DNA from: Eledone cirrhosa
Taxonomy: Eukaryota
Assembly (NCBI GenBank): GCA_964016885.1
Contig: OZ024742.1
Span: forward strand, 115,134,001 to 115,198,000
Length of the DNA: 64,000 bases
Reading direction: 5' to 3'
Shown here: piece after piece, positions 9,453 through 55,025 of the stretch
How the letters are laid out: each line of letters opens with the position of its first letter
Numbering within the stretch: the stretch's first letter is position 1
Program-made: the position numbers and the translations under genes
The notes under the pieces: generated by a model
Seen by the model: the letters and a program-made list of their open reading frames with translations, nothing else
Databases searched by the model: none
What the model was told of the DNA's origin: nothing

Positions 9453-11965
<2,513 letters not shown>

Positions 11966-19935: not shown

Positions 19936-19969
19936 GTAAGTGGCAAAAATATTATTATTATTATTATTT

Positions 19970-20946: not shown

Positions 20947-21059
20947 CGAGTTCAAATTCCGCCGATGTTAACTTTGCCTTTCATCCTTACGGGGTCGATA
21001 AAATAAAGTACCAGTAATACACTAGGTAATTGCTGGCCTTGTGCCAAATGTAGAAACAA
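20945..21059 (+). mobile_element. 5'-truncated tRNA-derived SINE
   Basis: B box gagttcaaattcc, core gcctttcatccttacggggtcgataaaataaagtaccag, tail ggccttgtgccaaatgtagaaacaa. Confidence 0.85.
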
Positions 21060-21976
21060 ATCGGGCAATGTGATCGGTGGAAACTCCACCTGCAGGTTCT
21101 ATAGAGGATTAGTGCAGGGGAAGAGCGACGACGTACTTGGGGAAACTCTAGGCGTCGACGAAAATCGATTAGCCAATTTCTTCCGAAGAGCTTTCGGGCC
21201 GGGGCCTATGGACAAATTCCAGAAATCCCTGGCCTGGCAGTGCTACCGAGGAGCTTTGCCAATTAGGGATAACTTCTACAGGCATGGAGGTGCCCTCAGC
21301 CGGGCATGTCCGAGATGCGCGCAGGGCGACGAAACCGTCCTGCACGCACTCGTCAGTTTCCGAGCATTGCTTCCCTGTGGGTTTATGTCGAACATCTGCT
21401 GTCGCGTATAGGACGGATCCAGCTATCAGCTCAGTCCATCGCAAGGATTGCCCCACCCTCTTCCTTTAGCCGGGAAGGACAGGCAGTTTTTATCTGTCTG
21501 GTCGCCATGGCGAAAGAGATAGTATGGTGGACACGTTTGAAATGGCAAAAGACGAGCACTTACCTCTTCGGTGATGCCCTGATTAACTTTTTCAAATTTC
21601 ATTTGAAAAGGAAAATGAGGGTAGAGGGGGAAGTGCTCTCTTCCCAGCATGTTGTTGAAAGATGGGTGAGAGGGGCAAGAATGGCCCGAGTGAATGGGCC
21701 TACTCTGAGTATGTATCTGTAAATTAAAGGTGGAAAACTGGGAGAGTGCACTTGCCCTGGTGGTCAGGCTCACTGTGGCTTTTTAATGGGCTTTCTCCAC
21801 GAATGTCCCTCGTAAGTCCCCTCCCCCCTATTGTGGAATTTGTTATTGTTATATTTTTGTTACATCCTCTGTTTTTGTTTTTTACACGCAGAAATGGCCA
21901 TTTGTACCATCCTGTATTGTCCTGTACTGTACTTAATGTCTACTTTGTGTAAACCCTTGTGGTTAATATTGAAAGC
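21060..21976 (+). mobile_element. 5'-truncated Tx1-like element (C-terminal Zn finger + 3'UTR)
   Basis: LAWQCYRGALPIRD, CPRCAQGDETVLHAL; very similar to 36900-37815. Confidence 0.9.
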
Positions 21977-22002
21977 ATTCTTCTTCTTCTTATTATTATT
22001 AT

Positions 22003-25000: not shown

Positions 25001-26790
25001 TGAGAATTATGTTAGTCTTGTGTATTATCTTTTGGTTCTGTTTGGAGTTCTGGATCTTAGGGAGGGTGTCTCGTTCCCCCATGTCAGATTCTTTCATTTT
25101 CATCCATTCTATCCATTTCATGCTTCATGCTGTCAAGTTCATTCTCATTCATTTCTTTATCATTTACGATCTCATTGTTTTCATTTAGAGTTTCATCTTG
25201 AGCATGCACTCCCTCCACTTTTTCGATCCTTTCTTTAATTTGTTCTGTTGTCAGTAATTCCGCCCCAACCCTGGGATTCGAAATGTTACAATTTACCTCG
25301 CTTTCACTGACACATGTTTCATTTTCCCTTCGCTGACTTTGTGCTAATAGCTTGATCTGATCAATTTCTATATCAGTTAGCAACTTTCTTTTAACAATAT
25401 TTCTTGGTATATTGGCTAGTTTGTTACTGTCAATATAGCCTCTGTTTTCGGGATGTTTATTTTTCCAGTTGATATAAGTCTGTTCTGTATTCGATCTATT
25501 TGATGGGTAGTATATGGCACTGTAGAAATTCTCAAGGACTTCTTTATTGTCTTCCCTTGACCATTTTGCTCTCTTTTTCTTTGGATTTCTTGGTGGTTAG
25601 CATGGAGGGCCAAGTGTAGGAGTATTCCGATTATGGGAGGTCTCCAGCTACGAAGCGATGGGTGACGGCCGATCCGGTATGAGGTTTTATCATTTGACAT
25701 TTACTTTATTTTGTCGCGTTTTGTCCTTAACCGCCAAAGGGTAATCATTTCGTGTTTCCACTTCTAGGACTAGTGTCAACCAAGACTAGAGGGGTCGTCC
25801 TCCACTCGAGATACGGCCGTCATCCCGGTATTTCTTGGTCACGGGGTTTTATTTTTTGTTGCTTTTAAAATGTTTATTATCAAGTGTGATTCCTTAATGT
25901 GAGCATTGCGTGGCTTAAGAATGAAATTATTATTAATAATATGATATACTTTTTTGCTGAAGTTGCCTGATATTATTGTTGGCTATGTCGGTGGTGGTGC
26001 TGGGGCTTTTTCTATTGTTGGTGGTGAAGGGGGGGGGGCAGCAGTGCCATAGTCGATGCCGTTTGACCGTGTCTAGTGATACCGCCACCTTCCCCTTTCT
26101 TAAGTTAACAGAAGGTAGTGGGGAATAGTGGTGGTAGCAATGAAGGAGTAGTGGCGGCGGTGATGGGATTGTGGTAGTAATAATGGAGAGTGGTGGCGGC
26201 GGCGGTGACTATAGTGATGGCGTTGTCGTTACTGAATGTTGTTGCATAGACTGTAGTAGTATGCGTTTGTTTGATCTATGTATCTATGTGGTTTGTCGTG
26301 TATGTTTTATATATGTGTTGACATATTTTCTTAATATTTGAATTAAACATTTTGAGAAAACTTGAGATACAATAATAGTAATTATTATTATGCTGGGAAT
26401 GGTGGTGATGGTGGTGGTGAAATTGCCGTTATCTGGCTGTTGTATTTAGTGTACACAGAGGTGTGATGGTGGGGTAGGTGGTGTAAGTAGTTTGTGGTGT
26501 TGGTGAAATTACTGTTAATTGGCTGTTCTATATAGTGTAGACAGAGGGTTTTTTTTCCATTTATAACCCTTTTCGTTTTTGAATATAAAATGTATAATAC
26601 AAAATTGAATATTTGAGCGATATAACAAGGATAATATGTATCCGAATTTTCTGAGAGCTGGCCTGGTACTTTATATATCATTAGTACTAAGAATTGTTAT
26701 ATCACAATTGTTTTAAATATGTTAAAATTCAAAAACAAACGGGAGCGATTTCATAACATTCTATCCACCTCGTGCGTCTTCTTCTTCTTA
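22003..26790 (-). mobile_element. Full-length decayed R4/Dong-like non-LTR retrotransposon, family A
   Basis: ORF pieces from 25700 to 22135: EQKGC, WIDYKKAFDS, HLFYM..LKL, FGLDKC, CREC..ETIDHI, RHD, NRPDI, KLSKY. Long 5'UTR; both ends abut (TAA)n. Confidence 0.92.
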
Positions 26791-26839
26791 TTATTATTAT
26801 TCTTATTCTTCTTGCTCATCTTCGTCTTCTTCTTCTTCA

Positions 26840-29800
26840 CAAACGACACCAACAATAACACCAACAACATCACCAACAACAACACCATCAATAACAACAG
26901 CAACAACAACAATAACAGCGGTAAAGTCGAGAACGACAGTAACAAAAATAACAGCAGTAAGGGCGAGAACGACAATAACAATGACAATAACAACAGCCAT
27001 AACAACATAATAGCAGGAACAGTATCAACAAAAACAACAATAATAACAACAGCCACAATAACAGTAACACCAGCAACAGTATCAACGAAAACAACAACAA
27101 TAACACCAACAACTGTACCAACGAAAACATCAACAATGACATCGATACCTGTAATAGCGATCTCAGCACCACCAGTAAGACCAGCAATAGTGGTTCAGCT
27201 GAAAAAGGGATCACTGCTTTTGCTGGTGTCGCCCAAAATATCGAGACAGTGTTAGTCACAGAGGAGGAGATGGCAGTCGCAAGGGCCATGGTGACAAGAA
27301 GAGCCAATATAGTCTCCCTGAAACCTCCAGCCGATTTTTTCAAGGACCAGCAGGTACGGACGGTGACTTACCGCATCGTAAGCAAAATCTCACATCGGGT
27401 GGAGAGAGCCACGGAGGTTCAAATCCAAAAGGTATTGGGTGCGTCTGGGCACGCAAAACCCACATTACCTGAGGCAGAAAATACGCCACAGTAGACGTAA
27501 TTTTCGCCACCCTCCAGGAAGCAAAGTCTCACTCTTTGGAAACCCTAAAGAGTGAGGAGGTAGTCTTGGTGCCCTCCTACTGCGGGATGAACATTGAGAG
27601 GGTCAAAGTGACCCGGATCCCATCCGACGTGCCCATACCGTGGCTGGCCGCGTCTGTCCTTGCTGGAATCGAGAACAGGACGACCATACTGCAAGTAGAA
27701 AAGATAGGGAGAGAGAAGGGTCAGGTATAGGCATGCAAATGCTTATACAAACAGACCAGGAATGTATCGACTCTATCCCCGATATCATAGACATCGAGGA
27801 AGGACTCCAACTCCCTATAAGTGTAGAAGGAAGACGGCTAAAATGTTATCTCTGTGGGTCGAAGGGTCACCTCAGGGCCTTTTGCCCGAAGAAGACAGCA
27901 AAGAAGAAGGCCCCTCTCCTTCTAATACCTAGTCTGCTTCTACCAAGAGCAGGGCAGGCAACAAAGGCAGAAGCCCCTTCCACGGTGAGTAGGAGAGCAA
28001 CGTCCGTAGCACCCGATCCAACGCTACGGAAAACTAAATCAGAATCATTAGTGGCGGCAACACCATTAGCTACATTTAAAGTAGCTACACCAGCAACAAA
28101 ATTGCCTAAGAGGGCTCCACTACCACCACCAACAGCCGTGGAGCACATACCCCTCCCAGACGCCACAGAATCCGACATGGAGTTTGAGGCGGGAGTAAAG
28201 TGGAAAACGGTCTGCCACAAAAAAACAAAAGAGAAAAAAAGCCTTAGATTCTCCCTCCAAAAGCGAAACCATACAAAGAGGGGTAAAGGCTGCAAAGAAA
28301 CTTGCAGCAGCACCACCACCATCACCACCACAAGCACCACTGACAACAACAACCACACTACCAGCAGCATCACCAAAAACACCAACGACGCAAACACAAC
28401 AAGACACACACACCAAACAGCAACAAGAAGAAAACAGCAACAAAATCACACCTCCCCAAAAAAGTACACAGCCATAAACATGTCAAAAAAAGAACTCATA
28501 CAATATATAAAGCAACACACAGACATCACAGAAAAAAACTACTACACCCCACAAAGCACCAAGAACTCTCCCGACAAACATAAGCATCATTGAAATCTCA
28601 ATAAAATAGTACAAACCTTTAAAACAAAAATTCCCCAACGCTGTTGGAGACTTCAGAGGGTCGGTTACCAAGAGGATATACACTGACATCATCTTGGAAA
28701 CACCCATGACAAGCGAAATGGACCCTTCTACTGTCCCTTCACCACACGATCAAGGTAAGTGACCCTTTCTCACTTGCTCCGTTTCTCATCCAACATGGCC
28801 GTACTCAGAATAGGCAGTATAAATGCACGTGGTCTGGGGTCATCTTGGAAGCTAGGTCACCTGCTCAACGACCTCAGGTCACTAAACCAAGGTGTGGTGG
28901 CCATCAGTGAGATCAGAATCTCCGAAGCACAAGCCTTCGCACCGATCTTCGGCGGCACCGATCCTAGACGGCATCTCCCAGACGTCCAGGATCGAGGGGA
29001 GGGTTTGCCATTCCTTTTCGGAGAGGCTTGAATCTCGCGATACGGGCCATCTACCTAGACCCAGAAAATAAGTCGGTGGTGCTGGACGGGCAGATTTCTT
29101 CAGACGTCTAGAGACCTTTCTTGGAACGTCCCGCTCTTTAGTGTTAGTGGGCGACTGGAACGGTATCTTGGATGCACGCTGTGATTGTGTGGGGCTAGTG
29201 GATAGGGGAGGAGGGTGCAAGAGCCTCACCAACCTGCTCAGACGTGTTGAACTGGCTGACAGGTATCGACTGGATCACCCGAATGTGCCAATATCGAGAT
29301 GGACAAACCGCATCGTGTCATCCAGATCGTATCTCGATAGGGTATTCTGCAGAGAACTAGATAAGGCTAGTATAAGTTTTCCACAATTTAAAATAGCCGA
29401 CTAAACAGACCACAAATTTGTGATCTGTGAGATCGACATAGACAGACCTCATAGACAAGGGCCTGGTTACTGGAAGCTAAACGCGTCTTTCCCGGCGAGC
29501 AAAGCCTACAGAGACCGGATTAGCGTATTAGTTAAGCAGGCGTTGACAGGTGCGGTCTTCAACAACAGGTGGTGGTTCGCCCTGAAAAGGGCAATTAAAG
29601 TAGAGTCGATTAGGTTTAGCAAAGGACTAGTGTTAGAGGGAAAGAGAGTAGAGGTAGAGCTAGTCAGAAAGCTAGAAGAGTCGTTTAGGACAGGCATCGC
29701 AAACGACGTTCTTGTGGCGAGATTGGCACTCGACCAATTCTTCAACGCAAAATACGAAGGCTGCGTTGTCAGAGCTAGATCGCGTGCTCTGAAACACGAG

Positions 29801-32100
29801 GAGACAAAAGCCGTCCAATGGGCCCGGGTGGCAGAGGTGCGACATGGCAACAAAGCCACAATTCGGTCTTTATCTGACCAAAACGGGTGCGTGTTGCTCG
29901 AACTCGAGCAGATATATGAAGCTTTACAGCAGCACGTTGCTTAACTGTTCGGGAGCAGCGGCGGCCCGGATCGGGGCATGGACTTCAGTGCATACCTCGA
30001 CGGACGGCCTCGGCTCTCGACGACCGCAGCACAGTTTTGCGAAAAGCCAATAACAGCTGGTGAAATACGGGGAGCGATGGCTAACTGCACAAGGGGTAAA
30101 TCGCCAAGTTTGGATGGTCTGCTCTATGAGCTTTATCCATTTATGCCAGACTTGTTCGGTGACCTCTTGGCAGATGTCTACTGCAACTGGCAGCAGAACG
30201 GGAGCATTCCCAGTTTTGTGAGCCGGGGAGCAATGGCGCTGCAGAGAAAAGACCCGAACACCGGGGATGCTATCGATAATTTCAGGCCCATAACCCTGAT
30301 AAACGCAGAGTTCAAGATTTTGGCCAAAGTGTTAGCAACGAGGCTGGCGCTTGTCGTCAAGGGTCTGATGGGAGAGGCGCAGATATGCGCCATTCTGGAC
30401 AGATCCATCCACGAAAACCTCCACCTCATGCGATACATCATAGAGAGGGTGGTTAAGGAACCTGGCACGGGTGGGGCCCTGATCAACATGGATCAATCCA
30501 AAGCATTCAATAGGGTCGACCATCGGTACCTGGCGGCGTTTCTCGAGGCAGCCGGTTTCGGGCCCGTTTTCAGGGTTTAAATGGCAGCAATGAACAGAGA
30601 CATCTGCTCAGTTGTGAGGGTGAAGGGTCACCTGTCGCAGCCGTTCAGCATCATGCGCCGAGTCCGCCAGGGTTCTCCCCTCTCGTCCCTCTCGTACGTA
30701 TTGGCTCTCAAGCCGTTACTGCACAAACTGGGGGCGATTAGGGGCGTCCCACGCGAACTATGATGCGGGAAATCCGAGTTGGCTTACGCCGACGACGTCA
30801 CCGTGGTGGTTTTGCGCAGCAGACTTGTCCAGATGCTCGGCACCGCCCTCAAGTAATACGAGGCGGTCACCGGAGCAAAGATAGACCAGGAAAAGTCGGT
30901 GGGCTTGCAGCTCGGCACCTGGAGAGGCAAGTCCATGTCGTCCGACAGCGTCGTGGGGCGTTGGTCGGACGGACCGGTTAAATTGCTCGGGGTCTGGTTC
31001 GGACCAGACCTCCAGATGGAGAAAAACTGGAACGAGGTGACGAGCAGGATGGCCTCACTCACCCAGAAATGGGACGAGAGGAAGCTGTCCCTGAAAGGCC
31101 GGGCGGAGGTGGCGAATGCGTACATCGCATCCGTCATCTGCTACCGCCTCACCGTCGTCCCTTGCTCCAGCCCAACTCTCACCAAAATAAAGCTCCTCCA
31201 CTTCCTCTTTTTGTGGTAGGGACGCGCTCCCATGGTCAGACGATCCATCTGCTGTCAACACCCGTTGCGTGGAGGACTGGGCATGCCATGGCTGATGATG
31301 CGCAAACATGCGCTAAGGCTGCTAAATCTCTGGTGCTTTCTTGATGGTGAACAGGTGTGGTCGCCGTTCGCCAGGCACGTTTTCCCACAGCTCGTCTCCT
31401 TGACGGAGCTGCAGTCCTGAGTCAGAAAAAGAAGGAGAGATAGCGCTTGGAAACTGATATGTATCCAGGCGCTCACTGCCCTCTGCCAGCTGGGCACCAG
31501 TATCGGTGGAGCATCCACCTCGGCGTTCTATAGGGGACTAGTCGAAGGGAAGAGCGACGACATTCTCGGAGAGATCCTGGGCGTCGAAGAAGATCACCTG
31601 TTTGCTCTCTTCCGTAGAACTTTCAGCCCGGTGCCGAATCCCTAATAAACGTTTTCAAGTTTCACTTGAAGAGAAAAAAAGAGTGGAGAGGCAAGTGCTC
31701 CTTCTATCAAGTTTGTTGAAAGGTGGGTGAATGTATCGAGAATGGTCCCAGTGAACGGGACCACTCTGAATATACGTCTGTAGTTTGAGAGATGGAAAAA
31801 TTGAGAGAGGGCGCTTGCCCTGGTGGGCAGGGTGGCCGTGGTCCTTTGTATGGTTTTCGCCATGAGTAACCCTCGGAGGTTTCCCCCCTATTGGGGAAAT
31901 TTTCATTGTTTCATTTTTCATTTTTATTGTTTATATATATATATATATATATATATGTTTCTATGTCCTTTTTTTTCTTTTTTTATATAAATAATACAAA
32001 TATTTACACGCACAAAACCCATATCGTACCGTCCTGTACCGTCCTGTGCCGTCTGTAATGTTTTTCTTGATGTCAGCTCTTGTGGCCAATAAAAAAATCA
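26840..32100 (+). mobile_element. Tx1-like element copy 1 (ORF1 with CCHC knuckle; ORF2 APE-RT with internal deletions)
   Basis: CYLCGSKGHLRAFCP; SINARGL, GDWN, SYLDR, WKLN, FRPITL, DQSKAF, VRQG.PLS, AYADD, GGLG; ends aataaaaaaatca-(TTA)n. Confidence 0.92.
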
Positions 32101-32110
32101 TTATTATTAA

Positions 32111-35100
32111 TATTGCCGACCTACGTAGTAAATCGTATTATCGTGAGCACCGCAAAGGTTTGTTATTTCCAGCTGTTTAAAATTGCCATTTATGGAAAAG
32201 TTTTATTGTTAACTGTATATAAGTGCACATACATTGTTTTCTGAAAAGGAAACTAAAAAAAATTGGGGTCTTGAGCTAAAAATTTTAAACTTTTATAATT
32301 ATCAAACAAAGATTTTTGTTTGAAAAATCATGGACGAATCAGAGTCACAGCTTCCTCACAAACTAACACCTCACACCGACACCACCACTGTAAATATTAC
32401 TACGTTTGCCAACACTAAAAATATAAGCAGTAGAAATATTTTAAATTTGTCTCAGGCAGACATTCATTTCCCGCCATTACCAATGACTGCAGGTGTTAAA
32501 ACCGCCACCCCCACTACCACCACAGCGACAACAGAGACAAACGAAAAAAATAAATTAACTCGTGATATCGAAATGAATTCAACCAAAATGAACTCTTCCA
32601 CACCGAACACCACTGACGCCACCACCACCACAACTGAAAATAAAATTAACAATAACAAAAATAACGATAACAACAACAGCAACAATGAAATTAAGAAAAC
32701 CACCCTGAGTTTTGCCAGAGTACCAACACATATTCGAAGCATTCCAGTTAACTCAGGAGGAATTAGAAGAAGCCAACAAAATGGTAAAGCCAGATGGGTA
32801 CAGGGTCAGCTTCACCCCCCCCCCCCCCCACACACCTAATAAAATGGAGCATCGGCGCCTATGCACCGTTAACATAAAATCGTGCCGAGTTGAACGGGCA
32901 TCCGAGTCCCAAATCCCAAAAGCTTGGGACATGGGTGGGCAAAAAAAACCCACATCAGACGTGGGCAGAAATATGGGACTGTGGACGTGTTCTTTGAAAC
33001 ACCACAGGAGGCCAGAGAACACTCCATGGCCCAATTAAGAAGTGACGACTTCGCACTCGTCCCAAGCTTTTGTGGCCAGAGACTCGTGAAGATCAGGGTG
33101 ACCCGCGATCCAACGGCCATCGAAATTCCCTGGCTAATAACTGCCGTCCTCGCCGGCATCGAAGCCAACACCAAGATAATCGAAATAGCGAAAGAAAAGC
33201 AGGAGTACTGGTCAGGATCTGGGATGGAGCTCCTGATCCAAGCGGACCAAAAAAGCATTGAGGAAATCTCAGAGGTAATAGACCTCACTGACGGCAGCCC
33301 CCTCACCGTAATTGTCGAGGGCAGAAGGCCTAGTTGCGTCGTTTGTGGATAAGGAACCCACCTAAGGGCTTTCTGCCCTCAGGCTAAAGGGTTGAGGCCA
33401 CTTCTCCTACCAACCCTAGTGACTCAACCATCAACACCACCAGCAGCAGAGATGGAAGAAACAACTGGAGCAGCAACAACAGAAGTAACTATAACAGCAA
33501 CAACGCAAGCAACAGTAGCAAAACCAACACCACCACTACCCAACGCTTCAGAACTAGCACCAGCGCCTACACCATCCACCACGCCACAACCAAAACTCAC
33601 GCCAGTGGAGGATTTTCCACTCCCCGGCCTATCACAACTGGAGATAGATTGTGACGACGAGGAGTGGGAAACGGTATCAGGAAAAAAGACAAAAAGAAAC
33701 CAAAAATAAAAAAAGTATCTTCCTTCCCCACCCCCACCCCAACATACAGAGGGAAACAAATAAACTATCAAACAAAAAAGTTAGGACATACATGCCACGA
33801 TCCACACCAGCATCACCAACCCCATCACCCCAAACACCAACACTATCACCATCATTAATCCAATCCACAATCACCTACACCACAATCACCTACACCACAA
33901 AAGTCACCAAAATGCGAAACAGAAACAAACACACAACAAACGCAAACAAAACAAAACAACCAAAATGATATGCACTACACAGCATTACATTTGAACAACA
34001 ACCAATTATTACACTACATCCAACAGAAAACCAGTATCACAGAAAAAGACTACACAACAACCCAAAAATTCACACCACCTCCACACATACAAATCACTCG
34101 CATCACACAGAAAACGTACATGACACTAAAACAAAAATTCCCCAAAGACATCGGAGAATTCCCACAAGCATTCTTCAGGAGGATTTATAAGGACATCCTT
34201 CCTGAGGAGGCCAGAAGCAGTGAAAAGGATGGAGAAACCGTCCTTCCTCTACGAGAAGTAAGGTAAGTGGTCTTTCCCATCTTTTCCACTCCATTTCAAT
34301 ATGACCTCACTCAGAATAGGCAGCATAAATGCGCGTGGCTTGGGGTCGTCATGGAAGCAGGGCCACCTGTTCAACGACCTCAGGTCACTAAACATATATG
34401 TAGTGGCCAACAGCGAGACCAGATTCTTCGAAGCACGGTCTTTCGCACCGATCTTCGGCGGCTACGATGTGTACGCATCTCCCAGCGGTCCGGGATTGGG
34501 GGAAGGAGTTTCTGTGCTTTTTCGGAGAGGTTTGGATCTTGCCTTACGGGCCATCTTCCTGGACCCAGAAGGTAAGTTGGTGGTGCTGGACGTGACCAGC
34601 GGAGACGGGCAAGCTTTCAGGTTAGTGGCCGTCTATGCCCCGACAGGAGCAGGATGGCCTGATTTCTTCCGGAGTCTGGAGACCTTTCTTGGAACGTCCC
34701 GCTCTTTAGTGTTAGTGGGCGACTGGAACGGGATCTTAGATGCACGCTGGGCCTGTGTGGGATTAGTGGATAGGGGAGGAGGGTGCAAAAGTCTCACCAA
34801 CCTGCTCAGGCGTTTTGAACTGTCTGACAGGTACCGCTTTGATTTCCCGAATGTGCCTATGTGGACTTGGACAAATCGCATAGGTTCATCCAGATCATAT
34901 CTAGATAGAGTATTTTGTAGGGAAATAGATAGGTCTAGCATAGGCTGTCCACAATTCCAGATAGTCAGCTACACGGACCACACATTCGTGATCTTTCTGC
35001 TTGACTTAGAGCAAGGCCTACAGAGACCGGATTAGCGAACTAGTTAAACGGGCGTTGACGGGGGCCATCGTCAACAACAAGTGGTGGTTTGCTCTGAAAA

Positions 35101-37817
35101 GAGCAATTAGAATAGAATCCATTAGGTTTAGTAAGGCTTTAGCAATAGAGAAAAATAGAGCAGAGGGAGAATTAGTTCGAAAATTCGACGAGGCGCTTAG
35201 CAAAGGCATCGCCACGGACGTACTTGCGGCGAAATTGGCCCTTGACCAATTCTTCAATGCAAAGCACGAAGGCTGCGTTGTCAAAGCTAGGGGCGTGCTC
35301 TCAGACACGAGGGGACGAAGGCCGTTGAATGGGCCCTAGGGGCGGAGGCGCGTGGTGGCAACAAAGACACGATCCGGTCTTTGGTGGACCACGACGGGCG
35401 CATGCTACTCGATCCCGGGCAAATGTGTGAAGTTTTTCAGCGACACTTCGATGAGTTGTTCGAGGGCAGCGGCGGGCCGTATCGAGAGATGGACTTTAGT
35501 GTCTACCTCGACGGACTGCCGTGGCTCTCGGCCACTGAGGCGAAGTGTTGCGAAAAGCCGATAACTACCGCTGAAGTACGGAAGGCAATGACTGGCTGCA
35601 CAAAGGGTAAATCGTCTGGTTTGGATGGTCAGTCCTATGAACTTTACGTATAGATGCCTGAATTGTTCGGAGGCCTCTTGGCGGACGCCTACTGCAACTG
35701 GCAACATAACGGGAGAATTCCCAGCTCCGTGAGCCGAGGAGTTGTGGCGTTGCTGAGAAAGGATCCGAACACGGGGGTTAACATAGATAATTTTAGGCCC
35801 ATAACTCTGCTAAATGCTGAGTTCAAGATATTGGCTGGGTGCTATCAAAGAGGTTGACGCTTGTCTTTGGTGGTCTGGTGGAAGAGGCGCAGACGTGCGC
35901 CATCCCCGACAGATCCACCCACGACAACCTCCACCACATGCGATACATCGTAGAGAGGGCAGCTAGAGAACCTGGCACGGGTGGTTCCTTGATCAATTTA
36001 GATCAGTCGAAAGCTTTCTATAGGATCGACCATCGTTACCTAGCGGCAGTCCTGAGGGCGGCTGGAATTGGGGACCTCTTCAGAGGCTGGATCGCTGCCA
36101 TGCACAGCGGCATCTGCTCTGTGGTGAGAGTGAACGGTCACCTTTCGGAACCGTTCAATATCATGCGCTCGGTCCGCCAAGGATGTCCCCTCTCGTCCCT
36201 CTTGTACGTATTGATTCTCGAGACATTACTGCACAAACTGGAGACGTTGAGGGGGGTCCTGGGCGAACTAGGATGCGGAAGATCCGTGTCAGCATATGCG
36301 GACGATGTCACCGTAGTGGTGTCGAACGCCAAACAAATCGAGGCGATCGGCACTACACTAAGAGAATACGAAGCGGTGACAGGAGCAATGATCAAACAGG
36401 AAAAGTCAGTGGGCCTGCAGCTCGCCACCTGGAGAGGCTCGTATATGCCGTCCAACAGCGTCGTCGGGCGCTTGACGGACGGACTGATAAATTGCTAGGG
36501 GTCTGGTTCTGTCCGGACCTCTAGACGAAAAAAAACTAGGACGAGGTAACGAGCAGGGTGGCTTCTCTCACCTAGAAATGGGCGGAGAGGAAGCTATCCC
36601 TGAAAGGTCGAGCGAAGGTGGCTAACGCGTACATCTACTACCGCCTGACCGTCGTACCTTGTCCTAAGCCCCGCCTGATTGCGCTGCGCTTTCGCTTTTT
36701 GTGGCTGATGATGCGCAGACACGCGCTCAGGCTACGACATCTCCACTTCTTCCTCGACGGTGATCAGGTGTGGTCGCCGTTTGCTAGACACGTCCTTCCC
36801 CAGCTCGTCTCCTTGACGGAGATGCAGTCCTGGGTCAATCGAAGACCGAGAGGGAGCGCTTGGAGACTGGAATGTCTTCAGGCGCACACAGCCCTCTACC
36901 AATCGGGCAATGTGATCGGTGAAAACTCCACCTTGGCGTTCTATAGAGGATTAGTGGAGGGGAACTGCGACGACGTACTTGTAGAAACTCTAGGCGTCGA
37001 AGAAAATCAACTTGCCAATCATTTCGGAATGACTTTCGGGCCGGGGCCTATGTACAATTTCCAGAAATCCCTGGCCTGGCAGTGCTATCGGTGAGCTTTG
37101 ACAGTTCGGGATAAACTCTACAGGCATGGATGTGCCGTCAGCCAGGCATGTCCGAGATGCGCGCAGGGCGACAAAATCGTCCTGCACGCACTCGTCAAGT
37201 GTCCGAGCATTGCTGACTTGTGGGTTTATGTCGAACACCTGCTGTCACGTGTAAGGCGGATCCAGCTATCAGCTGAGTCCATCGTGAGGATTGCCCCGCC
37301 CTCTTCCTTTAGCCGGGAAGGGCAGGCAGTATTTATCTGTCTGGTGGCCATGGCGAAAGAGATAGTATGGTGGACACGTTTGAAAGGGCTGAAGACGAGC
37401 ACTTACCTCTTCGGTGATGCCCTGATTAACCTTTTCAAATTTTATTTGAAAAGGAAAATCAGTGTAGAAAGGGAAGTGCTCTCTTACCAGAATTTTGTTG
37501 AAAGATGGGTGAGAGAGGCAAGTATGGCCCGGGTGAATTGGCCTACACTGTGTATGTGTCTTTAAATTAAAGTTGGAACACTGGGAGAGGGCATTTGCCC
37601 TGGTGATCTGGGTAACTGTGGCCTTTTTAATGGGCTTTCTTCACAATTGTCCTTCGGAAGTCTCCCCCCTATTGGGGAATTTTTCATTGTTATTTTTGAT
37701 TTTATCCTCTGTTTTTTTACACGCAGAAATGCCCATTGTTACCGTCCTGTATTGTCCTGTACTGTCTTTAATGTCTACTTTATGTAAACCTTTGTTGTTA
37801 ATAAAGAAATCAAAAAC
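32111..37817 (+). mobile_element. Tx1-like element copy 2, apparently full length (ORF1 32330-34266, ORF2 34301-37565, disrupted)
   Basis: CVVCG..H....C knuckle; APE ORF 34301-35035; RT ORF 35839-36498 (YADD); CPRC..LHAL..C; AATAAA then (TTA)n. Confidence 0.93.
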
Positions 37818-37975: not shown

Positions 37976-38740
37976 TTAGTCTCAGTCATTGGTGTTATTT
38001 AAATGGAAAGTTTTTGAAATGAATATCAAGCCGCTAGCTGCAGCCTCGGAAATTCAGGACGTATCGGGTGGTTCTTGCTGTTCCCAGCAAGCATGTCTTT
38101 TGAAGGTTTCCAAAAGCGGGGCTGGACTAATCTTCTTTAACCATCCGTGGAAACACTTTGCGATAATACCTACTGTGCCTTTGACAATCGGGACGACCTT
38201 GATTACATGGCCGTTCCAAATCCTTTTTAATTCCCACTTGAAATCCTGGTATCGGTTAATTTTCTCCCTCTCATTTTGCACTCTCGTGTCAAATGAGCAG
38301 GCTACATCTACAATCAGGCGCGATATTCTTTCCTTGTCCCAAACCACCAAGTCAGGTATAATTGTGTTCTAATTGTTTGTCCGTCTGTATCCTATCTTTT
38401 GTATTTCTCCTATACGCGGGTTTCCTGGGATTTGCGATAAGTAATCATTAGACCCCTTAGCTATCATTCCTAGAGCGCCTACAAACACTGGTATTGTTTT
38501 AGCTCTCAATTTCCACATTTTTCCAATTTCTATCTCCAGGTCCTTATACTGGCTCAATTTTTCAAATGTTTTTATAGATACATTCTTGTCTCTTGGAACT
38601 GTCATATCAATTAGCAGGCATACCCCAATTTTAAGGTCCTTCAGTATTATATCAGGTCCATTTGCATTTATTTTTCGGTCTGTTTGGATGCTAAAGTTCC
38701 ACAAGATTGAGATGTGATCTTTTTCAAGTATGGTTGGTGG
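37976..38740 (-). mobile_element. Joined R4/Dong 3' fragments (family B-like 37976-38393, family A 38394-38740)
   Basis: ORF 38054-38350 matches the family B RLE; ORF 38369-38704 matches the family A RLE. Confidence 0.85.
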
Positions 38741-38765
38741 TTATTATTATTATTATTATTATTAT

Positions 38766-41494
38766 TTGCATTTATCTTGCTTTATGTTTATACGAGTTAT
38801 CACCAAGTCACAACCAGTGACCTCAAGAGACAACAAGGTCCGCCATGTTCAAGAAAGAACATACATATTCACACATGCATCCTTAGTGTTTAGACTTGTG
38901 ATGTACTTATATTGACAGGATCTTCCTTAGTATATGGGCAGTTCCCATTAGTACTATCTTTTGTATTTCTCCTATACGCGGGTTTCCTGGGATTTGCGAT
39001 AAGTAGTCGTTAGACCCCTTAGGTATCATTCCCAGAGCGCCTACAGCCACTGGTATTGTTTTAGTTCTCAATTTCCACATTTTTCCAATTTCTATCTCCA
39101 GGTCCTTATACTTGCTCAATTTTTCAAATGTTTTTATAGATACATTGTTGTCTATTGGAACAGACATATCAATTAGCAGGCATACCCTCCTTTGAAAGTC
39201 CTTCAATATTATATCAGGTCTATTTGCATCTATTTTTCGGTCTGTTTGGATGCTAAAGTTCCACAAGATTGAGATGTGATCTTTTTCAAGTATGGGAGGT
39301 GGTTGATGCTCCCACCAATTCTTTTGATGGGGCAGGTCAAAATGCTTACACATTATCCAATGTATGTATTGTGCAGCTCTGTCATGCCTGTTTAGGTATT
39401 CGGTTGGAGCTATAGGACTGCACATTGACATTATATGGTCAATGGTCTCTGGTTGTTTTTTGCATACACGGCATAATGGGCTGCACCCATTTTTTATTAT
39501 GTTGGCTTGGTAATTTTTTGTTGGCAGACACTGATCTTGTGCCGATATAATCAGTCCTTCAGTCTCCGATTTCAGTCCAGAGGATGCCAACCACTGATGG
39601 GTTAAAGTTTTGTCAACATCAGGATTGCTAGCTCGCTCTGGGTATTTTCCATACAGAGGCTTTTCTTGCCATTTCTTAGCCAGTTTCTGTAGCAGTTCTT
39701 TCTTTGCAGTTACTCTTCCCTGCTTTGCTTTTTCTGTGTTTTCCATTTCAGCAGTAAATGGGACTTCTGAAATTTGTAGTCCATTACTGTATCTTTGTGC
39801 ATCTTTTGTAATGGAATATGATCTTTTGGTGCTTTCGTGTTTCAAAAAGAGTTTGATCATCCAATCATGTGATTCCCTTAGATATGTGGATAATCCAATT
39901 GTTGCAGTTTTCAACGCAATGTCTAACTGGATTAACCCACGTCCTCCCTCCTTCCTAGGGAGATATATTCTATCTATGTCTGCCTTAGGGTGATGCATTC
40001 TGTGCATGATTAAGAATTTTCGGATTTTTGTATCGAGCCTACGGATCTCTGTGCTTGACCAGTTGATGACATTGTAACTGTAGGTTACTACTGGTATGGC
40101 AAGCGTGTTTATGGCATCGATCCTATTCCTTGCATTCAATTCCGTTCTTAAGATTGCTCTGACTCTGCGGTAACATTCCTTCCTTATCCTTTCCCTCATT
40201 GTCGAGTGCTTGATTCCGTCTCCTTCACAAACACCTAGATATTTGTAAGTTTTTTCTTGATCAAGCTCTCTTATCACGTTCCCCCGATCAAGATTAATGT
40301 CTGAACTCTTCAGCAGCTTTCCTCTGGTGAACGTTGCTTTGGCGCATTTATCCAGTCCAAACTCCATTTTAATGTCATCACTGAACTGCTTCACAGTGGA
40401 TAATAGCCCTTGCAATTGTTCATCATTTTTTGCAAATAGTTTCAGGTCATCCATGTAGAACAGGTGATTAATGGTTTTGTCATTGACTCTATATCCATGT
40501 TTTGTTTCATTGAGCATTTTACTTAATGGTATAAGCGCGATGCAGAATAAAAGCGGTGATAAAGAGTCACCCTGAAAAATTCCACAATTAATGTTAACTT
40601 CTCCAGCTTCCAGTGATTTTGTTTCGCTATTCAAAAGGAGTGTCGTTCTCCATGTCCTCATACTGAATGACAAAAACCTCCTGACAACGGGGGATATTTT
40701 GAAAATCTCTAAACATTTTTCAATCCAACTGTGTGGCAAACTATCGAATGCTTTTTTTAAAATCTATCCAAGCGATCGACAGATTTTTGTGTCTATTATG
40801 ACAATCTTCCAGTATCATTTTGTTAACCAGAAGCTGATCCTTACAGCCATATGAGCCTCGTTTACACCCTTTCTGCTCAATGGGAAATAGGTCATTTGTT
40901 ATCAGGTGGTCATATGTGTATTCAGTTAGGACTGATGTTAACATTTTATACATTGTGGTCAAGCAGGTTATCGGTCTGTAATTTTGGGGATTGTTTGTCT
41001 CATCATTCTTCGGTAGCAGGAATGTAATGCCGTTAACTAGCCATGATGGTATCTTTTCTGGCTCCTTAACTATTTCATTGTAAAGTTGGGCTAACAGCTC
41101 ATGAGACTCTGTGAAGGCATTTATCCAAAAGTTTTGTATTTTGTCTTTTCCTGGGGATTTCCATTTGCTGGTTTTTCTTAGAGCCAAGCGCAGCTGTTCA
41201 ACTGTTATATTTTCCCATGTTTGTTCTTCAAGGTGAGCTGTTTCTTTCATTTGTCTGTCTATCTATGGGGCATGTATGTTATGAATTTTTTCTTCGGCCC
41301 AGATCTTTTCCCAGAATTCTTGCACTTCCTCCTTGGGTGGTATTGATTTAGCAGTTATTGTTGACTTACCAATTTTTCTGTAGAAGTTTCTTTGGTTGTT
41401 TTTGAACATATTATTGTCCTTATAGAATCTAGATCGTTTTTCAAAGCGCCTTATACGAGCAGCTTTGGCCGACACTTTTTGCTTGATTGTTTCT
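38766..41494 (-). mobile_element. 5'-truncated R4/Dong family A copy
   Basis: ORFs 41263-41475, 40741-41250 and 38907-40739; 3'UTR matches 22003-22135. Confidence 0.95.
38907..40739 (-). CDS. RT-thumb-CCHC-RLE portion of the R4/Dong ORF (610 aa open)
   Basis: GIFQGDSLSP, FYMDD, YKYLG, CRVC..ETIDHI..C, RHD, RPDI, IDMSVP, EKLSKY; one frameshift upstream near 40740. Confidence 0.88.
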   Translation of the reverse strand: MPHSWIEKCLEIFKISPVVRRFLSFSMRTWRTTLLLNSETKSLEAGEVNINCGIFQGDSLSPLLFCIALIPLSKMLNETKHGYRVNDKTINHLFYMDDLKLFAKNDEQLQGLLSTVKQFSDDIKMEFGLDKCAKATFTRGKLLKSSDINLDRGNVIRELDQEKTYKYLGVCEGDGIKHSTMRERIRKECYRRVRAILRTELNARNRIDAINTLAIPVVTYSYNVINWSSTEIRRLDTKIRKFLIMHRMHHPKADIDRIYLPRKEGGRGLIQLDIALKTATIGLSTYLRESHDWMIKLFLKHESTKRSYSITKDAQRYSNGLQISEVPFTAEMENTEKAKQGRVTAKKELLQKLAKKWQEKPLYGKYPERASNPDVDKTLTHQWLASSGLKSETEGLIISAQDQCLPTKNYQANIIKNGCSPLCRVCKKQPETIDHIMSMCSPIAPTEYLNRHDRAAQYIHWIMCKHFDLPHQKNWWEHQPPPILEKDHISILWNFSIQTDRKIDANRPDIILKDFQRRVCLLIDMSVPIDNNVSIKTFEKLSKYKDLEIEIGKMWKLRTKTIPVAVGALGMIPKGSNDYLSQIPGNPRIGEIQKIVLMGTAHILRKILSI

Positions 41495-41506
41495 TATTAT
41501 TATTAT

Positions 41507-44550
<3,044 letters not shown>

Positions 44551-44585
44551 TTATTATTATAATTATTATTATTATTGTTGTTATT

Positions 44586-49125: not shown

Positions 49126-49161
<36 letters not shown>

Positions 49162-49162
<1 letters not shown>

Positions 49163-52100
49163 GCACGAACATGTATGAAGACGTACAAGTCTGCGTGGGA
49201 AAAGGTTCGTAACATTAAGCTGTTTTAAAGAATCACTTTTTGTATTTTCTTGTCGTTATCGAATCATAAGGTACCCCCTTGATTCCAAGGAAGAGAGACC
49301 TCTCAATATTCGGGCATTAAGCCCGAATATTCAGATTTATTTTTAAAAACCTCGAAAAAAATCGCTTCCCCATAAAAAAAAATGGAAATGTTCGACCTTG
49401 AAATGGCAAACAACGTTCAGGTCAAAAGTTCAAATGCACCCACTGTAGATCTCACCAAAACAACGAAAGCTACAGACATGTCTGGCAACCATTCCACTGA
49501 ATGTGAAGGCAAAACACAAAAGCTACCATCACAACCGCTCCTTTCTGTAGAAGTATCATCTCAAAACGACAGTATCATCTCAAAACGACAGTATCATCTC
49601 AAAACGACATCACCACCACAACAACAACAACAACGACAATAACACCGACAGCTTCAATGTAAACACGGATGGCCGTGGCAAAAGCAACAATAAACAAAAC
49701 ACCAACAACAACACCAACAACATCAGCAAGAACGACAACACCAACAACATGAGCAACAGAGGCACCATCTTTGCTGCAACAGCAGCAAAAACAAAGCGCT
49801 TATTGAATATTGATATTAGCGACAAAGACGAACAGTTGGCTCAGGTTAATTAAACGGGAGAAATCCTTGGCAAACCTAACCATCCCGGACGAGACAATAG
49901 CGGCCATGCAAAGGGGGACAGTGTATTTCGATGTATTTCAGTGCAGACACGCAAAGTGGACTTGCCAGCCAAGCAGAGGTCGAAGCTGCTTTGGACTGCA
50001 TCATAAGTGACATAGAGTATAAAGCAAAGGCCAAACATTTCGGTACCATCTCGGTTCTGTTCAAAACCGAGGCCCTAGCTATTAAGCACTCGGTGACCCA
50101 CTTCAGAACGGAATGCATTATCATGCACCCGTCCTACATGGGTAAAAGGACAGTAAAAGTCCGCATTCCCAGCATCCCACCAGGAAGGAACTTATGGTGG
50201 CTCCTGGGATGCGTAATCGAGGTGGGACAGACACTGCCCTCCTGGACATCAAACGGACAGACAGAGACGACTGGTCCGGAATGGATTTGGAGATTCTCCT
50301 CCAAATGAAACCAGAGGACATGAACAACATCCCGGATTTTGCCCGACTGCGGGATGGGACAACAATCCAACTAATCACTGAGGGAAGAAGGCCGCACCGC
50401 TTCGTATACGGGGATGAAACGCTTCTGCACGCCTTCTGCCCTCAGCGCAAAAAATGCAGGGTTCGCAAACCTCCCTTGTTGCCAACGCCCGTGTCAGCAC
50501 GGAAAGCTGCACCGTCACCACCAAAAAGAACACCACCAAAGACACGGACACCAACATCAAAAACAGCTGGACTACTACCAACACCAAAACAAATCCAAGG
50601 GAAAAACAAGGAAAGCTCCCCACTGCCGCTTCCCCAGCAATTATACACATAGACAAAACAATAACGCACACACAGACGCAGACGCAGAGACACTCACTAC
50701 CACATACCCTTTGTCTTCCAGCAGCGAAGATGGAGGAAAACCCCAAAGTTCCAAAAAAACAAAGAAAACTCACCAAAAAAAGCCCCAACAAAACACAAAA
50801 ATATACACAACAAAAATACAGACACCACTAACGCAAACACTTCCCCAATAACATCGGCACCAACAGCAACATCGACACCATCCCCACAATCCCCGAAACG
50901 CAAATAACCTAAACAAACACAAGTACAAATAAACACATAAATACCTGAAATTGCAGACACCACACCTATAACAAACACAAACATATTCGAAACAACACCA
51001 CCAAAACCATCACCACCACAGTCACTAAAACGAAGACAAATAAACCTCACCAACAAAATGTTAAAAATTCTTGCTTGTCAGAAGGGCCAACGATAAAATG
51101 ATGGCCCTCTTAGCACAAAGCGAGGACATTAAAACGGAGGGGAAGATCTTTGAAATGAGCCCATTTTGCGTGCCAGAAGATTTGGTTCTGGTCCGAATGT
51201 CTCTCGATTCATTCAAAGAAATTCGAGAGAGCTTTCCTCAAGACGTGGGAACCCCGAATGTGAAACCCACATCGAGACTTTTAAAGGGGTTCCAAAACGA
51301 AACCCCACCAAAAATGGAAGTCGAACCACCCGTCATTCAAAAGACCCTGGGAGGTAAGTAAACCTTCCCTCTCTCTTTTAGCTTGCCAACATGCCCATAT
51401 TAAGAGTAGGAAGTTTAAATGTTCGCGGTATGGGGCCACCCTGGAAGCAGGGTCGCTTGCTCATCGACCTCAGGTCGCTGAAAATGGATGTGATTGCCGT
51501 CAGCGAGACCAGAATTTCCGACACGCGCCCATAAGAATCCATTTTCTACGACTATCATATCCACCCATCTGTTAGCAGGCCGGGAATGGGAGGTGGGGTG
51601 GCAGTGCTGTTTAGGAAAGGATTTGATCTCGAGGTGCGGTCGATCTTCCGGGACCCGGACGGTAATTTCGTGGTCTTGGATGTGACCAGTAGCGAAGGTG
51701 GTGCCTTTAGACTGCTGGCCATCTACGCCCCTACAGGGGCCGGACGTCCGGACTTATTTAGGCACCTGGAGACCTTTGTGGGTAGGTCTCGCATTCTACT
51801 GTTAGCGGGGACTTGAATAGCATATTAGACGCACGCTGGCATTGTGTGGGAGTAGCTGATAGGAGCGCGGGGTGCAAAAGCCTCAAGCACCTAATCAGCC
51901 AGTTCCAACTGTCTGACAGGTATCGACTAGATTTCCCCAATGCGCCAGTATGGACATGGACCAACCGCATGGGGTCATCTTCATTAGGAAAATAGATAGA
52001 AATAGTGTAAGCTGTCCACTTTTTAAAACAGTCGCCTATTCAGATCACAAATTTGTGATCTGCATGCTCGACACAGATAAAACGCGTAGGTTGGGATCGG

Positions 52101-55025
52101 GTTACTGGAAGCTGAACATGTCATTTCTGGCACGAAAGGCTTACAGGGACCGAGCCAACAATTTAGTTAAGCAAATGTTGACATGGGGTATAATAAACAA
52201 CAGATGGTGGGGTGGGGGGGCTCAAAGGAGAGATTAGAGTAACTTCGATAGAGCTCAGCAAAGAACTAGCGTTAGAGAAAAATAGAAAGGAGCGGGAGCT
52301 GGTAGATAAGATAGATGAGGCTATTTGTAGTGGCATTGCAACTGACGTGCTAGCGGCGAGAATGGCATTAGACCATTTCTTCAATGTGAAACACGAAGGT
52401 TGCATTGTCAGAGCTAAGGCGCCTGCGCTGAGAAACGAGGGAACCAAAGCTGTTCGATGGGCCCGCGTGGCGTAGGCGCAGCGTGGTAATAAAACCACAA
52501 TACGGTCTTTGGCGGACCGAAATGGACACGAGGAAAGCTATTCCAAGCGGATGTGTGAGGCTTTTCGCCAGCACATTGCGCGGTTGTTGTTGGGGGGGGG
52601 GGAGCCAGAGAGGGTAGCGGATTTCTGTCCCTACCTTGATAGCTTGCCGCGCATCTCGACGGTCGACGCTGAGTGCTGCGAAAGGCCGATTGCTTAAACC
52701 GAAATTCAGGATGCCCTTATCGGTTGTATGAGGCGCAGGTCATCCGATCTGGATGGCCTGCCCTACGAGCTTTACGTAAATATGCCAGATTTGTTCTTCG
52801 ATCACCTCGAAGCACTCTACTGCAACTCGCAGCAGAATGGGAGTATTCCCAGTTTTGTGAGCAAGGGAGTGGTGAGGCTTGTAAGGCAAGACGAGAACAA
52901 GTGGGATATATTAGACAACTTCAGGCCCATAACTCTGCTCAACACAAAGTTTAATATTTTGGCCAAGATGTTAGCAAAGTGATTGGCGCTTGTCGTCGAG
53001 CATTTGGTTGGGGAGGTGAAAACTTGCGCAATCCCATCCAGGTCCATACACGACAATCTCCACCTCATGCGAGGGTAGGATGTAAACCTGGCTTCGGTGG
53101 GGCAATAATCAATGTAGATCAATCGAAAGCATTCGATAGCGTCGACCATCGGTATATGGAGTTTGTCCTCAAAGCGGCTGGCTTCGGTCCTGTCTTCAGA
53201 AGCTGGATCGCTGCAATGCACAGCGACACACGCTCGGTGGTCAAGGTTAATGGCCGCCTCTGAGAACCATTTCGGCTCTCCCGATCGGTCTGCCAAGGGT
53301 GCCCTCTCTCTTCCCTTCTGTACGTATTGGCTCTCGAGCCTTTACTGCGAAGCTGGAGCTGTTGCAGGGCATCCCACTCGAACCGGGACGTGGAAGGGCG
53401 GTATCGGTTATGCGGACGACATCACCGTGATGGTGTCGGACACCTCAGAAATCGAGATGGTCATCACCTTATTGAAGGAATATGAAAGGTTGACAGGAGC
53501 CAAATTTAACCCGGAAAAGTCGGTGGGCTTGCAGCTGTGAACCTGGAGAGACAAGACTATGGCATCCAACACCGTCATGGGGCGCTGGACGGATGGACCG
53601 GTAAAGTTGCTCGGGGTTTGGTTCGGACCAGTCCTCCAGGTGGAAAAGAATTGGGACGAGGTAGTCTCACCCAAAAATTGGCTGGGAGGAAGCTATTGCT
53701 GAAAGGTCGCGTGGAGGTGCGAATGCGTACATCACGTCCATCATCTACTACTGCCTGACCGTTGTGCCTCGCCCCCGTCCGTGCCTCGATATGTTGGAAC
53801 GGCCCCTCTTGAAATTATTTTGGAGGGGACAAGTTCCGTTGGTGAGGCGGTCCATCTGCTGCCAACACTCTCTACGCGGAGGGCTGTGCATGCTGTGGCT
53901 AATGATGCGCAGACATGCGTTGAGGTTGCGACATCTCCAGATATTCTGCCTAAACGATGAACAGGTGTGGTCACCGTTTATCAAACGGGCCTTTCCGCAG
54001 CTCGTTTCTTTGACTGAGCTGCAGTCCAGATCAATAAGAGACTAAGACTGGGTGACTGGCACCTGGGATGTTGCCAGGGACTCACCGCCCTATACCAAGC
54101 GGGCAATGCGATCAGTGGAACTTCCACTCTCGAGTTCTATAGAGGATTAATGGTGGGCAAGTGCGATGACGCACTCCGAGAAGCTTTGCGCCTCGACGAA
54201 GTCGAACTGACCAGTCTGTACCGGAGGACTTTCGAGCCAGGGACGATGGAGAATTTCCAGAAATCCCTCGCTTGGCAGTGCTACCAGGGGACTCTGCCGG
54301 TTCGGGATAAACTCTACAGGCACGGAAGTGCTGTCATCGGACCTGCCCAAGATACGCACAGAACGACGAAACCGTTCTGCACGCACTTGTCCAATGTCCG
54401 TGCATTACTGACTTGTGGAGTTATGTCGAACAGCTACTGTCGCGTGTGGAACGAATCCGGCTATCGGCCGAGTCCATAGTGAAGATCGAACCGCCGCCTT
54501 CCTTAGATCAGGAAGAGCAGGACATTTTCCTCTCTCTGGTGACCGTTGGGAAAGAGGTTATATGGTGGACCAGATTAAAAGGACTGAAGACAGACAATTT
54601 TCTCTTCTGCTAATCCCTCATCAACTTCTACAAGTTTCACCTGGAAAGGAAGGTGAGGGTGGAGAGAGAAGCGCTACCCCCAGAACATTTACTAAAACGT
54701 GGAAGAATGTGGCGAGAATGGCCGTGTGAATGGGCCTACTCTGACCATGCGTCTATAGGCTAGCTAACCTGAGGAGAGAGGTGCTCTCCCTGGATGCCCC
54801 AGAAGCGCAGGGGGGTTCAGGATTGGTGGAGTACATGAGTCACCCCTGGGTCGTCCACCCCTTATAGTGGAATTTATATTATTATATTTATGCATAGTTT
54901 ATTTTAAATTTTGATATCTTCATTATTGAATTAGTTTTGCCATTGTGCACTTTTACTCGACCTGATTGTCCCTGTCTTTGTATTGTGCCATACATGTCGG
55001 CTCTTGTGGCTAATAAATGAAATCA
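49162..55025 (+). mobile_element. Tx1-like element copy 3, full length, divergent family, decayed (ORF1 49382-51361, ORF2 51391-~54758)
   Basis: SLNVRG, AIYAP, SDHK, WKLN, FRPITL, DQSKAFD, YADD, GGL, LAWQCY; ends gctcttgtggctaataaatgaaatca-TTA. Confidence 0.92.

Follow-up and report, generated by a model that had tools for sequence, protein, structure and literature searches.

Long interspersed nuclear elements (LINEs) are thought to balance the products of their two open reading frames (ORFs), ORF1p and ORF2p, by translating ORF2 inefficiently from a single bicistronic RNA. Whether splicing could also enter this balance is the question raised by a 64,000-nucleotide (nt) stretch of the Eledone cirrhosa genome (assembly GCA_964016885.1, contig OZ024742.1, positions 115,134,001 to 115,198,000; here referred to as the window), in which copies of a Tx1-like LINE carry what resembles a perfect 5′ splice site, or donor, across the ORF1 stop codon. 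An earlier interpretation made from the letters alone (the sequence-only reading) had proposed that the whole of ORF2 is a spliceable intron. We find that the donor-like motif is real and conserved and suggest that it may serve as a splice site. Our explanation, offered tentatively and with less than even confidence, is that selection maintains a 5′ splice site for the production of an ORF1-only mRNA, probably through a short intron.

By self-BLAST, the 64-kb window contains a two-ORF LINE in three long copies, all decayed and on the same strand, together with a 3′ fragment and an ORF1 fragment (19995-20377). Copy 1 (26830..32095, plus strand, as are all LINE features below unless stated) is 5′-truncated and 78% identical to copy 2 in ORF2. 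Copy 2 (32120..37812; self-BLAST, Pfam, and tblastn) is a full-span, decayed, Tx1-like member of the L1 clade with an approximate 5′ end. Copy 3 (49165..55020) is 69 to 70% identical to copies 1 and 2 in ORF2. The 3′ fragment, copy 0 (21056..21975), is 5′-truncated and 87% identical to copy 2; it begins inside ORF2 and is therefore not a spliced copy.

The sequence-only reading had placed a perfect AG/GTAAGT (slash, predicted exon-intron boundary) at the end of ORF1 in all three copies, and this is borne out. The motif lies at 28753..28760 in copy 1 (GT at 28755; ...HDQ, then G/GT AAG TGA), at 34261..34268 in copy 2 (GT at 34263; overlapping the ORF1 stop), and at 51352..51359 in copy 3 (GT at 51354; ...TLG, then G/GT AAG TAA). 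The pyrimidine tract described after the donor is likewise present, the spacer being 74 to 78% pyrimidine in the three copies (in copy 2, 34269..34300, 78% C+T with no AG), and the ORF2 ATG follows the GT by 40, 38, and 37 nt in copies 1, 2, and 3, as had been claimed (37 to 40 nt). Relative to CAG/GTAAGT, which we take to be the 5′ splice-site consensus, the donor matches at 8 of 9 positions in each copy, as expected at the start of a U2-type intron.

A Markov model predicts 0.03 to 0.05 such 8-mers per element. In the three-way alignment anchored on the GT, the motif forms eight consecutive identical columns; immediately upstream, only 2 of 38 ungapped columns are identical. Pairwise identity is 42 to 61% in the ORF1 tail and 47 to 56% at the junction, and no other three-way run of at least 8 occurs in the ORF1 core, the ORF1 tail, or the 3′ untranslated region (UTR), where three-way identity is 0.30 to 0.41, nor is there one in the spacer. 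ORF2, at a three-way identity of 0.61, holds 25 such runs. It could be argued that the motif was simply inherited and survived by chance in three related copies, with no selection at all: there are only three nucleotide copies, the choice of motif was made post hoc, and copies 1 and 2 have diverged rather little. We consider this very unlikely, as the flanks compared with copy 3 are near random (42% in the ORF1 tail) and the Gly-Lys (GK) ends described below recur in relatives at ∼30% identity.

Does the conserved sequence serve RNA or protein? The frame in which the motif is read differs between copies, as the sequence-only reading had noted: copies 1 and 3 end in GK-stop, reading the motif as G/GT AAG stop, and copy 2 ends in R-stop, reading it as AG/G TAA. 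The difference amounts to one nucleotide, perhaps a product of decay. The frame of copy 2 agrees with that of copy 1 as far as Thr-Val, seven codons before the stop, after which copy 2 has one extra base; this nucleotide lies no more than 20 nt upstream of the GT, and the neighboring frame reads ...YEK-stop-GKW. The R-stop end may be a subfamily trait or decay. Granting the protein constraints (GK-stop in two copies and only a stop in the third) leaves ∼3 and 6 positions free. Gly-Lys could have been encoded otherwise (GGT makes up 24% of 124 Gly codons and AAG 41% of 61 Lys codons), and fourfold-degenerate sites are 44% identical between copies 2 and 3 (20 of 45 sites). From this 44% and a local identity of ∼55%, our own rough estimate of retention by drift is a p near 0.003. 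These comparisons support a conserved U1-type donor at the ORF1 stop, as predicted from sequence, and nucleotide-level selection on it is likely.

Relatives beyond the window bear on the same question. A HMMER protein scan with the ORF1 core returned 156 hits, of which 150 were listed. Eight of these aligned with the profile of the C-terminal domain or with its margin, and two of them (P0015 and P0010) were dropped for a stop at or inside the domain, leaving six; P0011, with a weak match outside the C-terminal domain, was left in the background set. GK occurs within the last 8 residues in 3 of the 6 relatives that pass the C-terminal domain versus 5 of the 142 other listed hits (p about 0.001, for a set chosen after looking). 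The GK-bearing ends are those of P0034 (...DQGK-stop), the cleanest case, and of two gene models, P0020 (...EGKS) and P0004 (...TLGKKWKQN), the tail of the latter perhaps being frameshifted. The GK-end pattern thus extends to relatives, and it cannot separate a Gly-Lys requirement from a donor. We also considered the C termini of P0004 or P0022 as spliced junctions and rejected them, as they show no consistent phase. Protein word searches with the ORF1 core and the ORF1 tail found nothing, and no related DNA loci were found among metagenome contigs, viral contigs, or prokaryote genomes.

The donor likeness may be incidental, the letters being kept for a C-terminal Gly-Lys and its stop context or as an RNA signal for termination-reinitiation onto ORF2, with no use in splicing. 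We regard this as possible, although on the doubtful side. G-K-stop is indeed what the conserved letters spell in two of the three copies, and P0034 shares this ending; stop-linked reinitiation for ORF2 is described in L1 and SART1 (PMC5972666); in human L1, moreover, a donor is conserved for a RUNX3 site at the DNA level and is rarely spliced (PMC5860796). What speaks against an incidental likeness is that synonymous positions are also fixed, that the motif survives in the R-stop frame of copy 2, and that P0020, continuing G-K-S, keeps the T at +6 but not the stop. Three minimum-free-energy folds gave neither a shared hairpin hiding the donor nor a shared structure around the site, a further point against this reading.

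If the motif is a splice donor, the acceptor becomes the central issue. Two features absent from the sequence-only reading are relevant here: a conserved nearer acceptor at 34383 and a second perfect donor at 34572. Downstream of the donor, 80 AGs are common to all three copies, and for 14 of these every copy has at least 8 pyrimidines across 14 positions. The 14 begin with GACCTCAG/G, ending at 28877, 34383, and 51473. This candidate acceptor (28861..28877 in copy 1, 34367..34383 in copy 2, at ORF2 codon 28, and 51457..51473 in copy 3) retains CTCAG/G in all three copies inside ORF2, with predicted introns of 123, 121, and 120 nt, respectively. Joining the donor to it would remove the ORF2 AUG and 27 codons, and the joined ends are then predicted to read G-H-stop in copy 1 and G-R-stop in copy 3. 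We rejected a mini-intron ending at the first AG after the spacer (+54, +52, and +28), which is too short and lacks conservation. A strong acceptor-like TTTTAG, 10 nt 5′ of the ORF2 ATG, occurs in copy 3 only (51354-51381); at 28 nt it is too close to pair with the donor, but upstream donors could use it to give an ORF2-only RNA.

The second perfect donor (34570..34577, GT at 34572) lies in the endonuclease codons D-P-E-G-K and is altered in copies 1 and 3. Both it and the near acceptor are met in an annotated gene model. The RefSeq protein XP_036360308.1 (P0003; Octopus sinensis, tectonic-3-like) contains a LINE endonuclease stretch at residues 40-101, amounting to 62 codons plus 1 nt (187 nt), compared with a span of 188 nt in the window. 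The limits of the stretch match the near acceptor and the 34572 donor to within one base, its start being an out-of-frame Val just after the acceptor and its end D-P-E at the donor. Given these limits, and given that the residues before the LINE stretch do not match the unspliced LINE reading, the annotated transcript model uses both sites.

We propose a candidate scheme, which is conditional throughout. The perfect donor across the ORF1 stop is likely kept by selection, and some of the transcripts are likely spliced at it. The most probable acceptor would lie 120 to 123 nt downstream, so that the ORF2 start codon is deleted and an ORF1-only mRNA results; for most subfamilies the acceptor is probably not the one in the 3′ UTR. 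Its purpose would be extra ORF1p from an RNA unable to make endonuclease and reverse transcriptase (RT), with unspliced RNA serving as the bicistronic template. Translation of the spliced RNA would terminate 3′ of its junction, since the donor sits immediately ahead of the stop; no junction would then lie downstream of the new stop, as a design safe from nonsense-mediated decay requires. In the copy 2 subfamily, if R-stop is genuine, the near acceptor would yield an ORF1-ORF2 fusion and a far acceptor an ORF1-only product. The acceptor would be free to change between subfamilies.

Several observations weigh against this explanation. A LINE ORF1 has its own stop and, unlike copia gag, can be expressed by itself with no need of splicing. 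The near acceptor is of middling quality, ranking 24 of 242, 22 of 240, and 10 of 248 AGs by a tract score of our own making, and it sits in conserved codons, as one of the 80 downstream AGs that all three copies share. Most Leu codons in S-L-K/N would produce the stop that follows it. In copy 2, read in the R frame, the near splice predicts an in-frame ORF1-ORF2 fusion rather than ORF1 alone. The 34572 site shows that G-K codons can also make a perfect donor by accident, inside ORF2, a point in favor of an incidental likeness at the ORF1 stop as well. Half of the relatives (P0022, P0043, and P0062, 3 of 6) do not end in GK. As for XP_036360308.1, it is a gene model whose upstream exon is not demonstrably an ORF1 tail: that exon has a profile score of 0.7, matched by 224 of ∼2,000 shuffles, and the best pairwise result for the P0003 N terminus (10 of 1,000 among 8 tests) is not significant. 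Finally, no junction from the donor was observed in the contig joints described below.

The sequence-only reading had instead joined the donor to an acceptor in the 3′ UTR. The candidate at 37696..37726 consists of a T tract, ACACGCAG, with a TTGAT 27 nt upstream read by eye. A simple heuristic of our own making ranks it first among the 240 AGs that follow the donor in copy 2, and its match likewise ranks first in copy 0. Its final G at 37726 and 21891 and the AC in copy 1 (32012-32013) are as that reading stated, but the acceptor is not family-wide, being absent from copy 3 also; its two carriers, copies 2 and 0, are 87% identical. As a conserved 3′ splice site with a pyrimidine tract, the far site is strong but confined to one of three lineages, and the near site is weak but kept in all three copies.

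That a 3,464-nt stretch from the donor to 37726 is one intron, giving ORF1 plus an 86-nt last exon, is in our assessment distinctly unlikely as a general account. In its favor, the far AG scores best in copies 2 and 0, and in phase 2, the copy 2 frame, the joined RNA reads through 19 further codons to a stop whose position is identical in the two carriers, upstream of the AATAAA (37800..37805, followed by the (ATT)n tail or target). Splicing would also remove a 3′ UTR hairpin (37660..37680, inside the proposed 3.46-kb intron and present in 4 of 4 copies; weak, at −3.15 kcal/mol, with two-sided changes in 2 of 9 pairs), so that retrotransposition of such RNA would probably be inefficient and DNA copies of it few. 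Set against this are the lack of the acceptor in copies 1 and 3, the absence in phase 1 (the GK frame) of any stop before the tail and poly(A) signal, and the general expectation of T-rich tracts ahead of a poly(A) signal. The claim that all of ORF2 is one intron is weakly supported and, given the stop in the copy 2 phase, may hold for the copy 2 subfamily.

Either intron could leave joints in sequence data. No run is on record as RNA, although X4 (88 million letters) might be. Contigs from four runs were aligned to copy 2 at 80% likeness, and matched contigs numbered 44,234 in run X1 and 39,159 in run X6, so the family is very abundant. No joint from 34262 to the near or far acceptor appeared among the 15 displayed of 2,408, the weakest of which had a summed depth of 57 (ranking rule not stated); contigs drop rare forms, and this result neither supports nor refutes splicing and is not evidence of absence. 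Genomic copies lacking exactly the donor-to-acceptor interval, which the sequence-only reading had suggested searching for, were found neither in the window nor among the same 15 joints; an RNA spliced to lack ORF2 would serve poorly as a template for retrotransposition. Among 40 displayed of 2,110 rows reporting another letter, none concerned 34261-34268 or 37725-37726, and among 12 displayed of 178 indel rows, none fell at 34190-34262, which does not settle the origin of R-stop. Summed depths at 34234, 34276, 34293, and 34300 were 89k, 468k, 288k, and 304k in X1 and 0.6k, 167k, 53k, and 33k in X6, and simple repeats cannot match the donor stretch at 80% (best, 75% over 20 nt). This hints at an island of likeness over the donor, on which we do not rely, as depth cannot rank parts.

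A donor can also act without splicing. The site might bind the U1 small nuclear ribonucleoprotein and thereby protect or boost full-length transcription across ORF2, an option that the sequence-only reading had raised as suppression of premature polyadenylation and that we judge unlikely. It would fit a donor conserved far better than any strong acceptor, and a dual role has been shown for the donor of the Arabidopsis element EVD (PMC5580714). However, internal AATAAA signals after the donor number 2, 0, and 2, are not shared, and do not lie near the donor, and the A-rich ORF1 upstream has 1, 5, and 3 AATAAA that the site would not cover.

The label Tx1 was taken from the sequence-only reading and fits the anatomy of the copies. 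In copy 2, the broken ORF1 (32330..34266, ending ...LREVR-stop) has a low-complexity N terminus, an RRM-like core, a CCHC knuckle, and a C-terminal FPxDVG domain, and the broken ORF2 (34301..37565) encodes an APE endonuclease, an RT, and a C-terminal zinc finger (Pfam PF03372 and PF00078, with PF13966, zf-RVT, below its cutoff). Two ORFs with a short spacer between them, the ORF2 domain set, and a type I ORF1 (RRM plus CCHC) are all as in the Tx1 group of the L1 clade, for which a type I ORF1 is consistent (PMC5203782). In Pfam, zf-CCHC falls below its cutoff in copy 1 and exceeds it in 3 of 11 relatives. The ORF1 Atlas neighbors are of the ZCCHC3 RRM-RRM-CCHC type (0.91 to 0.93), and an ORF1 structure model (pLDDT, 86) gave RRM/ferredoxin-like matches with Z up to 7.5, none significant alone. 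An MBD match in ORF1 of copy 2 (32918-33038; Pfam E, 7.5e-5; 22.7 bits, just above cutoff) was rejected because none of the 11 intact proteins scanned (9 ORF1 relatives and 2 ORF2) matches MBD and because the fold is RRM-like. Sequence matches in PDB for the intact ORF2 homolog P0001 were only human L1 ORF2p and one unnamed RT chain. Named homologs all come from Octopus sinensis, O. vulgaris, O. bimaculoides, or Argonauta hians, which by themselves make an octopod host very likely. Gene models P0030, P0081, and P0111 (the last from O. sinensis) are host-type proteins that run into the same ORF1 core, which suggests frequent exonization or misannotation of the family.

Surrounding sequence points to a nested cluster. 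(ATT)n/(TTC)n repeats occur at both ends of the Tx1-like copies (26780, 32095-32120, 37812, 49130-49165, and 55020), and copy 2 directly follows copy 1 head to tail; together these features suggest a microsatellite-targeting family and a nested LINE cluster. The 3′ ends enter ATT/TTC repeats in 4 of 4 cases and the 5′ flanks are (TTA)n-like, tail and target being indistinguishable; target-sequence preference is common in Tx1 (PMC4494074). Large minus-strand LINEs at 21977-26800 and 38392-49150 have an RT and the C-terminal motifs RHD, RPD, and K.SKY, and are presumably R4/Dong-type elements with a restriction-like endonuclease. Copies 1 and 3 each stand head to head with one of them and share a flank (26410-26813 is 76% like 48745-49151). 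Long inverted repeats occupy 4957-7060 and 9453-11682, and also 60327-62304 (85 to 88% over ∼2 kb; 98% over 744 nt). One further AG/GTAAGT, at 19934-19941, lies outside the elements just 5′ of an (ATT)n tract and is possibly a host exon end or chance.

Taken more broadly, the observations allow a wider and more speculative hypothesis, to which we give rather low credence: octopod Tx1 LINEs would run a copia-like two-mRNA program, with a donor conserved across subfamilies and frames and an acceptor that turns over by subfamily, and host splicing would set the ORF1p:ORF2p ratio. GK-stop subfamilies would use the 120-nt intron, closing ORF1 two codons later; the R-stop subfamily would have gained a 3′ UTR acceptor that removes all of ORF2 plus the 3′ hairpin; and the same splice sites would be exported into host transcripts. 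If so, a splicing switch known so far from copia long terminal repeat (LTR) elements would be added to LINE biology, LINE activity would depend on the splicing state of the tissue, and ORF1-only elements such as HAL1 could arise directly through RNA. Strong donors would also be scattered through octopus genes because the family is very abundant.

How much of this has precedent? LINE RNA splicing and ORF1-only derivatives are already known. Human L1 has conserved, functional splice sites that give one-ORF subgenomic RNAs (SpIREs and SpORF2; PMC5860796 and PMC2896524), which resembles our proposal for another member of the L1 clade, but its donors are in the 5′ UTR, splicing removes sequence of the promoter or of ORF1 (leaving ORF2 only), and the bulk of the RNA stays unspliced; the portions of these two papers available to us describe no donor at the ORF1 stop of human L1. 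HAL1, HeT-A, and Ag-Sponge share an ORF1-plus-3′-end structure with the predicted far-acceptor product and differ in being DNA-level internal deletions amplified as families (PMC5786205). TART has antisense introns, and an intron in transcripts of the LINE-like element Tad of Neurospora, which is of another clade and kingdom, is cited in the same paper (PMC1636488, citing Sewell and Kinsey 1996); this intron may be a precedent that lowers the novelty of our proposal. Tad is also reported to have short ORF1-bearing RNAs.

For O. vulgaris, 13 recently active L1-Tx1 families with 421 insertions covering 2.29 Mb have been described, along with roughly 80 consensuses in the supplement (PMC13282606). 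By our own division these figures give ∼5.4 kb per insertion, which matches the 5.3- to 5.9-kb copies here in size, the only property compared; the accessible part of that paper yielded no sequences or splice features for the families. Titles and the starts of abstracts, a search that left subscription papers and Repbase Reports mostly outside, contained no description of a donor at the ORF1 stop of a Tx1/L1 element, and nothing on such a donor appears in the accessible text of PMC4494074 or PMC3956500.

The closest parallel is the gag mRNA of Ty1/copia elements (Drosophila copia and the shGAG RNA of Arabidopsis EVD), and the analogy to copia gag splicing drawn by the sequence-only reading is apt (PMC5580714). 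In both systems, a conserved U1-type donor lies near the end of the structural ORF (PMC5580714, PMC7197481), and the likeness extends to the proposed mRNA for the structural protein only. Among Arabidopsis Ty1/copia elements, the conserved site is the donor, which is a better predictor of splicing than the acceptor (PMC5580714), and in EVD the donor also suppresses premature polyadenylation (PMC5580714, PMC7197481). The differences are equally clear: copia elements have LTRs and a single GAG-POL frame in which demonstrated splicing creates the gag stop, whereas the element here is a non-LTR element with a separate ORF1 that has its own stop, and its splicing is predicted. Lacking the single GAG-POL frame and a stop created by splicing, the E. 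cirrhosa LINE may work like the copia system without being a member of it.

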